Of a stretch of DNA of 64,000 bases, positions 37,475-63,717 are shown piece after piece (the stretch's first letter is position 1; every line of letters begins with the position of its first letter). The DNA is from Octopus vulgaris (lineage: Eukaryota), in NCBI GenBank assembly GCA_951406725.2, contig OX597831.1, positions 11,408,001-11,472,000 of the forward strand, given 5' to 3'. The notes under the pieces are model-generated. The model did not search any database and had not been told where the DNA came from. It worked only from the letters and a program-made list of their open reading frames with translations. The position numbers were made by a program, and so were the translations under genes.

Positions 37475-37802
37475 AATTATACTAATGCAGTATATGGGGA
37501 TCGGACAATATGCATAAGACAGTGTCAACGATGGTTTCAGAAATGCCGAGTCGAAAACTACAACCTAGAAGTCTTCAAAATCATATGGATGGAACAAATA
37601 TGAATTTTGTAGACGAGGTCAGAAAAGTACAGGAGTATTTTTTGTCACGGACAAATGAATTTTGGAAGAGGGGCCTTGTAAGTCTACCAGATAGATGGAA
37701 GATCATTGTAGAAAGTGTAGATTAAAAAAAGAACTTTGTTTATCTTAATTGTGAAAAATAAAAGAAGTATAAAAACTGCATTATTTATGGGATGGCCCAA
37801 TA
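37475..37802 (+). mobile_element. Internally deleted mariner transposase relic with probable 3' TIR
   Basis: TNAVYGDRTICIRQCQRWFQKCRVENYNLE (N-terminal HTH) joined out of frame to RSLQNHMDG...EVRKVQEYFLSRTNEFWKRGLVSLPDRWKIIVE (C-terminus); ends ...TTATTTATGGGATGGCCCAA|TA. Confidence 0.8.
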
Positions 37803-40634: not shown

Positions 40635-41531
40635 TGTTTTCTTCTCCTTTAATGCTGTGTTCGCTTCCAATAAGTCCTCTTCCACCTCTTTCTTGGTACA
40701 TACAGTCTATTTGTGTCACTTTTTGGGTGGAGTAACCCATATCTAGTTAGCAATTTCCTTGTCTTTCTGCCTAAGCTGTTTAGTTTGTCTATTGACCATG
40801 CGATTACCCCTGCTCCATATCTAAGGAGTGAAACCGTCCAGGTGTTGATAGCTTCGATCTTATTCCGTCCATTTAATTTCGAATTAAGGATCAGTCTCAG
40901 TTTGCGCAAGTACTCCTCCTTATATTTTTCTGCCATTTCTTTCTCCATCAATTTACCCATTTCCAAAATCCTCAAGTACTTATAGCCCGTCTCTTCTATC
41001 TGCTTCATAACCTCCCCGGTGGTATCGTTAGCCCGTCCATACATTTGATTTTGCCTCTCTTCAAAATTAACACATTAAACTTTCTCAGTCCGAACTCCAT
41101 TCTGATATCAGGACTGAAGGTATAAACCGTATCAACGCGGGAACTGACTTGGGCTTCATCTTAACCATAAAGTTTGAGGTCATCCATGAATAATAAATGG
41201 TTGGCGGCTTTTGAATACATACCCAGCTTTCGCTTTCCTCAGAATCAGTGTTAGTGGTATCAAGCACAGTACAGAGATCAGTGGGGATAGGCAGTCCCCA
41301 TAGAAGATGCCCCTCCTAATTTCTACTGTCCCTAAACGCCTCCCGTATGCTATCAGGTCCGTCCTCCAATTCGCCATACTTTCGATGCAATACCAAATAT
41401 GTTCATACACTCCATAATCCAAGAATGTGGGATCATATCGTACGCCAACTATCTAAGTTACTTTTCCTCCTCTTGCAGTCTCTAAGTACGGTTTTGTTTA
41501 TTAGGAGTTGCTCCTTGGTACCACTGCATTT
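40635..41531 (-). mobile_element. R4/Dong-clade (RLE) non-LTR retrotransposon, decayed reverse transcriptase
   Basis: GTKEQLLINK; IRRGIFYGDCLSPL; HLLFMDDLKLYG (FMDD at 41179-41190); MEFGL; YKYL; LNSKLNGRNKIEAINTW; HPKSDTNRLYVPRK; contains frameshifts and stops. Confidence 0.9.
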
Positions 41532-52699: not shown

Positions 52700-52885
52700 T
52701 TGTGGCTGCGTGGTAAGAAGCTTGCTTCCCAACCACATGGTTCCGGGTTTAGTCCCACTGCGAGGCACCTTAGGCAAGTGTCTTCTACTATAGCCACGGA
52801 TGGACCTAGGCCTTGTGAATGGATTTCGTAGATGGAAACTGAAAGAAGCTCTTCGTATGTATATATGTATATATGTGTATATATG

Positions 52886-53439: not shown

Positions 53440-53848
<409 letters not shown>

Positions 53849-53896
53849 ATATATATATAAATATACACATACATACATATCTATATATACATATAT

Positions 53897-54005: not shown

Positions 54006-54436
54006 TATATGATGCAAATGTCTGTAAGTATGTATATGTGTTTGTGTGTGCGCGTGTGTCTGTGCGTGTCGTGCGTGTAGCATTTCGTTGTTAAGTGTGT
54101 GTATAAACGTTCAACATCCAAACACAAAGACGATATATGCATTCAATTCATTAAATTCCTCACTAATTTCTCACCTTTTTCTTTACAGTTTATATATAAC
54201 GGTAAAATGTAAAATAATGCAATCGGTAGAGCATTGGTCTGTTCTTCAGCGATATTTCGTTACAGCCCTTCATATTTCGTGTCCAACTCACGCCGCGAGC
54301 GACATGGCCGATTATCTCTCTCACCGTCCATTTGATTGTATACTTGATAGCACAACAGAGGGAGAACTGAAGAGTTTTGAGAAACCGATCCCAAGATACA
54401 AGCCGGCACCTTGCTGGTGACTGGTATGAATCTGTA

Positions 54437-54533
<97 letters not shown>

Positions 54534-54568
54534 GAAAGAATGGAGTCGAACGACGATTTAACAAAATT

Positions 54569-54663
54569 CCTTTATTCTCGACACATGTTTCGAAGACTGC
54601 ATATTCTTAATTCCGAAGGAATAAAGGGTGCATTATGCCGTCTTCTCATCAGGAAAAACAAGG
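54569..54663 (-). ncRNA. Type I hammerhead ribozyme (minus-strand copy)
   Basis: Mirror of 54791-54885; CTGATGA = reverse complement of 54646-54652; GUC site = reverse complement of 54580-54582. Confidence 0.8.
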
Positions 54664-54790
54664 AACTTATGTCAGCATCACGACGAACACAAACATTTAG
54701 ATGACTGCCCACACGGAGTTCATTATTACTATGGACTCCGTGTGGGCAGTCATCTAAAAGTTTTTGTTCGTCATGATGCTGACATAAGTT

Positions 54791-54885
54791 CCTTGTCTTT
54801 CCTGATGAGAAGACGGCATAATGCACCCTTTATTCCTTCGGAATTAAGAATATGCAGTCTTCGAAACATGTGTCGAGAATAAAGG
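54791..54885 (+). ncRNA. Type I hammerhead ribozyme (plus-strand copy)
   Basis: Stem I CCTT-gtc-TTTC / GAGA-ata-AAGG; CTGATGA 54802-54808; stem II GAAGAC/GTCTTC extended by GCATA/TATGC; GAAA 54863-54866; stem III AC-ATGT-GT; GUC with predicted cleavage after 54874. Confidence 0.82.
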
Positions 54886-55077
54886 AATTTTGTTAAATCG
54901 TCGTTCGACTCCATTCTTTCATTTATCTATAGTAAAAAAACACACAAATTTCCACTCGAAAGCAGGTGATTTCTGCCCTTGGCAGTTAGCTTCAACCGTG
55001 CTCTCTGACGTAAATTTGCTACCCGAGTATCGGTTAACCGAATTATCCATACTAGGATAATTCATTCAACTACTTAA

Positions 55078-55122
<45 letters not shown>

Positions 55123-56474: not shown

Positions 56475-56652
56475 CTTTTACTAGTTTCAGCCGTTAGACT
56501 GTGGCCGTGTGGTAATAGCTTGGTTTTCAACCACAGGGTTCTGGGTTCAGTCCCACCGCGTAGCACCTTGGGCAAGTGTCTTCTACTATAGCCTCGGGCC
56601 GACCAAAGCCTTGTAAGTGGATTTGGTAGGCGGAAACTGAAAGAAGCCCATC

Positions 56653-56703
<51 letters not shown>

Positions 56704-56744
56704 CATACATACACATATATATATACATAATACATATATATACA

Positions 56745-56800
<56 letters not shown>

Positions 56801-56974
56801 CGTATATGTATATACATACATACATACATACAACGACAGGCTTCTTTCAGTTTTCGTCTACCAAATCTACTCACAAAGCTTTAGTTGGCTCGAGGCTTTA
56901 GAAGACACTTGCCCAAAGTGCCACGTAGTGGGATTGAACCTGGGAGCTTCTTACCACACAGCCACGCCTGTGCC
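56475..56974. mobile_element. Rearranged SINE family A: two 5' halves in inverted orientation around a microsatellite
   Basis: Minus tail stub 56475-56506; plus head 56501-56653; microsatellite 56654-56830; minus head 56834-56974. Confidence 0.85.
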
Positions 56975-57630
56975 GATATGTATTTGAAATGTTTGTACAC
57001 ATCATCATTTTGATCTAAAGCTGTTCCAGGAATGTAGAGTCATACTTATGAATGAGGGGGGATTGACAGGGGGGTACTGGTAAAAGTGTTGGCGCCATTA
57101 TTCACACGTGTATAAAGATGTCCGTAGAACGAACATGGTGGAATAAAAGACTTGACTGGTGTAGAAAATTGAGGGGGAAATAGCGATCCTTTAGAAAAAA
57201 CATTAAGGATTCGAGTTGATGTTAGTAAAACAGGAAAACAGGGATAATGATGAAGCGTGGTGAGAGAATAACGATGGAGAGTTGTGACCGAGGGAAAGAG
57301 GCGGCGAGACTGTTATAAAAGGGGAGATGAAAGAGGATGAATCTTCATACGCGTGAAAATTGTCTACATTGACATACACATACATATACACATAGATACG
57401 TACATATATATACACACATATATATATATATATATATATAACCTACATATAGACATACATAAACACGCACATTTATATGTGTAATTATATATATATTTGT
57501 ATATAAATATTCATGCACACGCATACACACACATAATACATACATGTATTTATATACATACACACACACATATATATGTATGTATGTATGTATGTATTAA
57601 TGTATGTATGTATGTATGTATGTATGTATG

Positions 57631-63061: not shown

Positions 63062-63216
63062 GTCTTTTATTTCCCTACAAGGATAGTATTTCAGTTCTGT
63101 ATTTAAGAGATGAGGAATTATGTACATTATTGACATTATTTACATTTGACATATTTTGTATCTTTTCGGAGAAGCCTTTCACATAGGGAGACATACTGTG
63201 GACAGCTTATTGGTTT

Positions 63217-63717
63217 GTGAATAAACTGTCCACAGTCTGTCTAACCTATGTGAAAGGGCTCTCCGAAAAGATACAAAAGATATGTGGTTCACATGACATC
63301 AGGACAGTATTCAAGAGTAATACAATACTTCGCAAATATCTCCGAGTAAAATCACCAATAGAAGAGAATATGACCAAAGACTGCGTGTCCTCCATCTCAT
63401 CCAGCTGTGGTAGATTTTACAAAGGCGAAACATGCCGCCCCCTCAAAATAAGGGTAGACGAACATCGCAAAGCTGTGACACGAAGAGATATTGATAAATC
63501 GGGTATAGCTGATCGTGTATGGAAAAATGGAGACCCCACTCCCCGCCTGTGGGATGAAGTTAAAATGACAGATAGAGAAAACCACTGGAAAATACGAAAA
63601 CTAAAAGAAGCAGCACATATGCTAGGATACAACAACCTCCTAAGCAGACCGAGCGCAAATATGAATAGCGTATGGGAACCGGTATTAAGGAAGGATAGGA
63701 AAATATTAGATCTATAA
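63217..63717 (+). pseudogene. Penelope-like RT C-terminal linker plus GIY-YIG endonuclease, degenerate
   Basis: CLTYVKGLSEKI...IRTVFKS...LR; CVSSISSSCGRFYKGETCRPLKIRVDEH (vs GVYxIPCxCGxxYIGETxRxLxxRxxEH); KSGIA; RKLKEA; no RT core, motifs mutated. Confidence 0.88.

Follow-up and report, generated by a model that had tools for sequence, protein, structure and literature searches.

Inverted copies at the 5' end are described as frequent among Penelope-like elements (PLEs), where a tail of 30-40 bp is often present on one side only (PMC8557442). According to the supplement of that paper, Penelope-13_HM carries an inverted copy truncated at its 5' end, and one and the same hammerhead occurs on each strand. 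Hammerhead pairs on opposite strands, 100-700 bp apart, have also been reported, together with low activity and dimers (PMC4209133), and metazoan retrozymes have been presented as tandem PLE derivatives (bioRxiv 10.64898/2026.07.22.740005). For another PLE, two internal start sites of reverse transcription and the extension of both target strands were found in vitro; the start site is described as the same for both strands, so that a strict pairing of long and short ends is not predicted (PMC11167929). The hammerhead of this element, PAc (Poseidon of Anolis), is reported to cut only with protein and to be dispensable for in vitro insertion (PMC11167929). PMC8557442 names the origin of the tandem and inverted structures of PLEs, and of their microsatellite bias, as an open question. 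In the open literature we found no published twin-priming or hairpin account of PLE inversions; subscription papers, Repbase and Dfam were outside the scope of this search, so both an annotation of the present family and a published version of the model may already exist.

The locus described here lies in a stretch of 64,000 nucleotides from Octopus vulgaris (contig OX597831.1; "the window", to which all positions refer), where a first-pass annotation had seen a palindrome bearing a hammerhead ribozyme on each strand. The 194-bp arms with five mismatches and a 7-nt loop given for 54530-54924 are confirmed by our arm alignment, and an inverted-repeat search of the window recovers arms of 198 nt (54526-54723 and 54731-54928; 97% complementary, 7-nt spacer). 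One of the five mismatches, 54720/54734, is the palindrome junction itself. At the internal differences 54657, 54681, 54690 and 54695 the left arm has the non-common allele every time, though four sites are too few for significance. The end at 54924 was placed too early: the right copy extends about 150 nt further, to 55079, and shares, over 355-361 nt, 93-97% identity with the 3' termini of copies that bear the ORF (e.g. L040, L042, L033 and L060). The insertion is accordingly an asymmetric one of about 550 bp (54530-55079) and not a symmetric 395-bp unit (Table 1).

Table 1. Features of the insertion and its flanks in window coordinates; the target portions are read from the sequence and the ribozymes are predicted.
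Feature	Position	Strand	Remarks
(AT)n tract	54444..54486		Left portion of likely target microsatellite
(AG)n tract	54488..54529		(CT)n on the element strand; between target and short 3' end
Inverted pLTR copy	54530..54719	-	Element positions about +14 to +203; outer end is the family's "short" 3' end
Junction and 7-nt loop (loop 54724-54730)	54720..54734	+	Native element sequence with Inr-like TCATT; A54722 is +1
Direct pLTR copy	54720..55079	+	Begins at the 5'-end hot spot; outer end is the family's "long" 3' end
150-nt "tail"	54929..55079	+	Separates short and long 3' ends; right arm only
(AC)n then (AT)n	55080..55113		Right portion of likely target microsatellite
Type I hammerhead, right arm	54789..54887	+	Stem I 54789-54801/54875-54887; predicted cut after C54874
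Core parts, right arm		+	CUGAUGA 54802-54808; extended stem II 54809-54862; GAAA 54863-54866; stem III and loop 54866-54873
Type I hammerhead, left arm	54567..54665	-	Core 54652-54646; predicted cut after 54580

The right arm is the pLTR of a young, high-copy Penelope-like retrotransposon. It matches many places in the genome at 97-100% identity (40 of 2345 candidates scored), and its exact 16-mer occurs 344 times. The copies end 3' at two sites, one short (54924-54928; +207, with A54722 as +1) and one long (55075-55079; +358), and longer copies extend upstream into a 3'UTR of about 450 nt and the terminal part of an ORF. The full layout is present in L051, in the order (TA)n, inverted short piece, partial pLTR, ORF, 3'UTR, pLTR and (TA)n, with a unit of about 3.5 kb, and here the tail runs about 50 nt further to reach the ORF start. 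Together with the truncated copies, this layout displays the partial tandem forming pLTRs and the 5' truncation of PLEs with an endonuclease (EN+). The PLE-type hammerhead, the young age and the PLE origin with an inverted 5' copy proposed at first pass are thus borne out by the parent family and its copies.

The parent protein has about 880 aa (in L052, an open frame of 833 aa; in L051, 883 aa interrupted by a single TAG), with YRDD, C-terminal SIY..FYIG and the R/H/E/N residues, and is 31-34% identical to 10 homologues. The best named homologue comes from Argonauta, in line with an octopus host. Searches of Pfam with the EN piece, two ORFs and the protein alignment, and of PDB with the alignment, gave no useful match, and the motifs are what identify a single ORF with RT and GIY-YIG as in EN+ PLEs. 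Several features point to the Hydra clade: SDKT in L051 and L052 has DKT in place of DKG, the EN lacks CCHH and has CxxC and CxH around E and N, and the target is (TA)n. We also count the RWK motif, which reads RWL here and RWK or RWR in the homologues. The CxCX5C linker before the EN, found in 10/10 aligned homologues, is absent from L051 and L052, which have at its position an Asn-rich stretch of about 120 aa between RT and EN (L051:2403-4814, L052:2441-4939), and the unit of about 3.5 kb in L051 exceeds the size of <3 kb general in that clade. The family thus seems to be a Hydra-like PLE rather than a Hydra member, as judged from motifs. The Naiad clade is ruled out by the C-terminal EN. 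We also note that (TA)n targeting is kept despite the Asn-rich replacement of the linker, which counts against a linker finger setting this bias.

Upstream, the parent has CCAAT, TGACGTCA, TATAA at -28 and TCATT, for which we assume the labels CRE, TATA and Inr. Both TGACGTCA and TCATT are retained in copies down to about 73-80% identity. An older subfamily (L158, L160, L161 and L162; 4/25 aligned older copies) has lost 13 nt between its TATA-like motif and Inr-like site, placing the TATA-like motif at -15, which is a caveat to the twin-priming model below. Among 86 anchors, 45 of the 5' ends fall at -1..+10 (21 of them at -1/+1) and none at -5..-2, while 8 lie at -19..-6 and 33 further upstream, many continuing past the reference; palindromes are counted twice in this sample and ends beyond +11 are invisible. 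The hot spot relies on this count rather than on the control counts (32 versus 4 versus 4), which are weak since one anchor spans a polymorphic site, an undercount of about threefold; a broader anchor gives 41. These DNA ends suggest that TCATT, with A54722 as +1, may be the transcription start, and AT-rich microhomology with the target may have added to the pile-up. The promoter-like motifs of the parent sit upstream of the axis and are missing from the present locus, and an RNA starting near the axis, as once envisaged, would not be expected from this copy. Contigs of two presumed RNA runs, whose identity is guessed, cover the pLTR and not the junction, and speak neither for nor against expression.

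Among the family copies, (TA)n abuts 65/87 short ends and 63/81 long ends, whereas (CT)n or (ATCT)n follows ...ATCT at 13/87 short ends and (AC)n follows ...AAAC at 3/81 long ends. The (AG)n tract of the present locus may stem from slippage during insertion or from later expansion. Repeats between the element 3' end and (TA)n copy the last 2-4 element bases in the window (54488-54529 and 55078-55086) and in L005, L006, L008, L017, L018, L022, L027 and L034. Such end-copying repeats could reflect reiterative telomerase-like synthesis at the start of reverse transcription, or later microsatellite growth. Copies of a SINE-like repeat surround the element in direct and inverted orientation (52700-52850, 53684-53850 and 56517-56990), from which a read-through RNA could gain further dsRNA. 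Elsewhere in the window we recognise by eye what we take to be fragments of a LINE RT (40652-41452, minus strand), of a mariner transposase (37486-37722, plus strand) and of the C-terminal part of another PLE (63187-63714, plus strand), with no Pfam match for any of the three. Pfam recognised no host exon in 36 of the 86 window ORFs, a search that exons of <70 aa would escape, and the element may still lie within an intron.

Each arm has the intact type I core first reported, with CUGAUGA, GAAA and GUC, a stem II of 6+5 bp that carries an additional hairpin, and a stem III of 2 bp; the left-arm ribozyme mirrors the right-arm one with an identical core and one additional A-U pair in stem I. Rfam gives no hammerhead at the gathering threshold in the whole window, nor at E<=10 in 54400-55100, probably owing to the 54 nt between A9 and G12, and the call therefore rests on core motifs and covariation. 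Over 159 unique copies, the pair 54813-54858 occurs as G-U (65), A-U (52) and G-C (34) and the pair 54829-54847 as U-A (66), C-G (58) and U-G (30), counts that represent few subfamily events and not independent changes; the pair 54835-54841 is disrupted in about a third of these copies. The core is intact in 114/139 copies. The conserved core and stems I-III argue for a type I hammerhead within the pLTR, as in other EN+ PLEs. Loop II could alternatively form a 9-bp helix with the 3' strand of stem I, but one pair of this helix is disrupted in 58/157 copies and we reject it.

The self-complementary 6-nt ACAUGU singled out at first is the wrong register for a double hammerhead, as the nucleotide to be cleaved would then be G. 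A productive dimer would instead pair through the 8-nt ACAUGUGU, which includes two G-U pairs and has a computed energy equal to that of ACAUGU (-6.0 each), while the commoner allele ACAUAUGU (86/139 copies, against 26/139 for ACAUGUGU) is a perfect palindrome computed at -7.0. In a folding model without Mg or tertiary contacts, the active monomer fold lies 4.3 kcal/mol above the ensemble (p about 1e-3). When the entire insertion is read through, the RNA folds at -378 kcal/mol, with the active ribozyme fold 124 kcal/mol above the ensemble, and this computed folding agrees with the earlier suggestion that the ribozyme would be buried in a read-through hairpin. Each strand of the palindrome has only one sense ribozyme and hence cannot give a dimer partner in cis. 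As for traces of cleavage in the genome, no 5'-end pile-up occurs at +154 among 100 of 204 matches listed, and 0/9 loci have a 3' end at C17; one further copy, L119, ends there but appears to be a local duplication. We predict that the hammerhead is a 5'-UTR ribozyme of the parent that would act weakly on its own and is designed to act as a dimer; at the present locus, in a copy that lacks the promoter, it is probably just carried along. A hammerhead on each strand of a palindrome would then be an expected by-product of PLE insertion and not a new RNA system. If read through, loci of this kind could hypothetically supply dsRNA pathways.

Searching the genome with the arm, as first proposed, recovered the ORF-bearing parent PLE, single copies and 26 loci with a palindrome at the same axis (arms meeting within 5-25 nt; L086/L087 appear to be one duplicated locus), and no tandem monomers. 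The palindrome is hence no one-off inversion, the outcome that would have undone the first interpretation. Thirteen of the 26 share the same 41-nt axis span, and 12 have exactly the present loop. The locus pairs L086/L087 and L095/L096 share junctions and are likely segmental duplications. In 15/25 loci both arms could be aligned at >90%, the other 10 being excluded for deletions or early ends, and here the arms differ by 1.8% within loci versus 6.2% between loci, a within-locus value reached in 0/2000 shuffles. The arms are sisters in all 15 scorable loci, subfamily-diagnostic columns agree within every one scored, and left arms do not cluster together. Another 15 wider or partial inversions give 3.1% within versus 5.9% between loci. 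Loop alleles and junctions vary among the palindromes, and the loop allele tracks the subfamily. Because their arms are sisters, each palindrome seems to have arisen from one source at its own locus, at insertion; on these sequence comparisons, the palindrome does not spread as a unit.

The ends of the copies follow a sharp rule. All 86 anchors listed on C1-C4 correspond to 74 loci (L095/L096 look duplicated), of which 39 are head-to-head over the stretch analysed: 34 long+short, 1 long+long, 0 short+short and 4 with an unclassified end. Long+short is accordingly found in 34/35 classifiable loci, where chance would give at most half (binomial about 1e-9, by hand), and in 24/26 axis palindromes. 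These loci present the inverted 5' copy and one-sided tail of EN+ PLEs. The 35 single copies comprise 21 short, 12 long and 2 other ends. In 10/34 long+short loci (L064 excluded as rearranged) the inverted partner consists of the tail only, and two such partners stop at +210 and +217, beside the short site. In the 12 exact-loop loci the long arm bears the native loop in 5, the present locus included, and the short arm in 7.

We consider it probable that the locus is an insertion of about 550 bp of a young PLE, with two head-to-head hammerhead-bearing terminal repeats produced in a single event by twin priming on one source RNA. The source RNA would start at the Inr-like site, driven by CCAAT/CRE/TATA-like motifs in a previous copy just upstream. 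The endonuclease would nick both strands of the (TA)n target, after which one target strand would prime reverse transcription from the long site and its partner from the short site, inside the 5' pLTR of the RNA. Both cDNAs would be extended toward the RNA 5' end, stopping at or before it, and their free ends would be joined via 2-4 nt of CAT/ATG microhomology, leaving the 7-nt loop. We count the parent ORF and its layout, the end rule, tail-only inversions, short-arm loops, sister arms and 5' pile-up as support, and likewise the paired internal start sites and the extension of both target strands found in vitro for PAc (PMC11167929). Against a single RNA template, sister arms could also result if gene conversion had acted later or if one source locus had supplied two RNAs.

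In an alternative that we regard as unlikely, a single cDNA ending in ...CCAT-loop-ATG would prime itself and copy back, with one arm then cut at the AT-rich short site or joined there to the target. The native 5' end does hold a CAT/7-nt/ATG micro-hairpin that would yield exactly the loop seen in 12/26 loci, sister arms would follow directly, and with the native loop on the long arm fold-back alone could suffice at the present locus. However, an additional cutting step is required for the 7/12 loci with a short-arm loop, many junctions have no hairpin, and there is no route to the short-ended single copies (21/35) or the tail-only inverted pieces (10/34). Since a tail-only inverted piece cannot be templated by the short cDNA, it counts against plain fold-back. 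Far less probable still is an ordinary insertion followed by inversion at the DNA level or by gene conversion between neighbouring copies. Conversion too would make the arms alike, and later deletions and rearrangements are seen at some loci (L064, L069 and L077), but the joining of both outer ends, as family 3' ends, to (TA)n would be left unexplained, as would the long+short rule.

The first-pass reading of a self-propagating, palindromic non-autonomous ribozyme element, retrozyme- or MITE-like, is largely refuted and has hardly any likelihood left. Twenty-six similar palindromes, 13 of them with a common axis span, and the two intact cores of the present locus might suggest it. However, the arms are sisters sharing subfamily alleles, left arms form no group, loops and junctions vary, tandem monomers are missing, cores are mutated in some palindromes (L062, L065, L070 and L086) and the upstream promoter-like motifs are absent. 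Nor does the element appear orientation-independent, with a 150-nt tail on one arm and 26 axis loci against 344 16-mer matches. Long palindromes are a known class of artefact, but a fold-back chimera or assembly error is virtually discounted by the four internal arm differences, symmetry ending at a family 3' end, unrelated flanks and, as modest support that is not locus-specific, contigs of the independent DNA runs X4 and X2 covering 54690-54715 across the axis at low depth (coverage 7.6-14 in X4 and 82-186 in X2, versus thousands elsewhere). Two further opposite-strand joints are found in X2 contigs.

Twin priming can be extended, tentatively and at slightly under an even chance in our judgement, to a general rule: PLEs would integrate by obligate dual priming, in which the two nicked target strands each use a different one of two fixed start sites, separated by 150 nt on a single RNA, and priming in the 5' pLTR gives strong-stop-like mini-insertions ending at the transcription start. 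If true, this would account for inverted pLTRs and one-sided tails across PLEs and supply exact coordinates for a test; the family would also reach its (TA)n targets in the absence of the linker zinc finger to which this preference is attributed. The present locus is one ordinary copy among hundreds. In L1 twin priming, two primers act on one RNA and a 5' inversion is joined by microhomology, as in the mechanism proposed here; in L1, however, the pieces are not known to overlap and the second primer site is variable, whereas in the present family the second site is fixed and the arms can overlap almost fully.

Among described PLEs, the Hydra clade (e.g. Penelope-13_HM and Hydra-1_Obim) shares with this family a single ORF with RT then GIY-YIG, DKT, an RWK-like motif, the CxxC and CxH around E and N with no CCHH, (TA)n targets and a 3' hammerhead (PMC8557442). 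By the same source, the family differs from that clade in having no CxCX5C linker, a size of about 3.5 kb versus <3 kb, a 54-nt branched stem II and a tail of 150 nt versus 30-40. A second hammerhead family, matching the Hydra-1_Obim motif (L167-L172; 58 exact matches to its 15 nt in the genome), is separately present and also (TA)n-ended, with 27% EN identity and no pLTR similarity. Penelope elements of Adineta vaga likewise have an inverted pLTR overlapping the direct one, a tail at one end only, TATA- and Inr-like pLTR motifs, solo pLTRs and Asn-rich RT-EN inserts; they differ in belonging to the Penelope/Poseidon clade, in very low copy number, a short tail and target duplications of 8-10 bp, and the pairing of their ends is not counted in the parts of PMC3846280 considered here. 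In PAc, too, two internal start sites define the tail, the target is AT-rich, both strands are cut and extended and the pLTR has a hammerhead (PMC11167929). Its start sites are, however, adjacent, inside the ORF and described without strand difference, whereas those of the present family are separated by 150 nt and precede the ATG. With the minimal PLE hammerheads (PMC4209133) and the non-LTR retrozymes (bioRxiv 10.64898/2026.07.22.740005) the ribozyme shares its type I core, tiny stem III, palindromic loop and dimer-type design; such retrozymes consist of head-to-tail tandem monomers, while the present element is a single head-to-head pair with one sense ribozyme per strand.

This family bears on the question named in PMC8557442, and the 34/35 rule, tail-only inversions and sharp 5' limit make the two-primer model testable. 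The palindrome is real and young, and is explained as a PLE of a new family in a known arrangement, probably formed by twin priming. Inverted 5' copies, one-sided tails and opposite-strand hammerheads were already known for PLEs, to which the sharp long+short rule and the 5' pile-up at the Inr-like site are added here.
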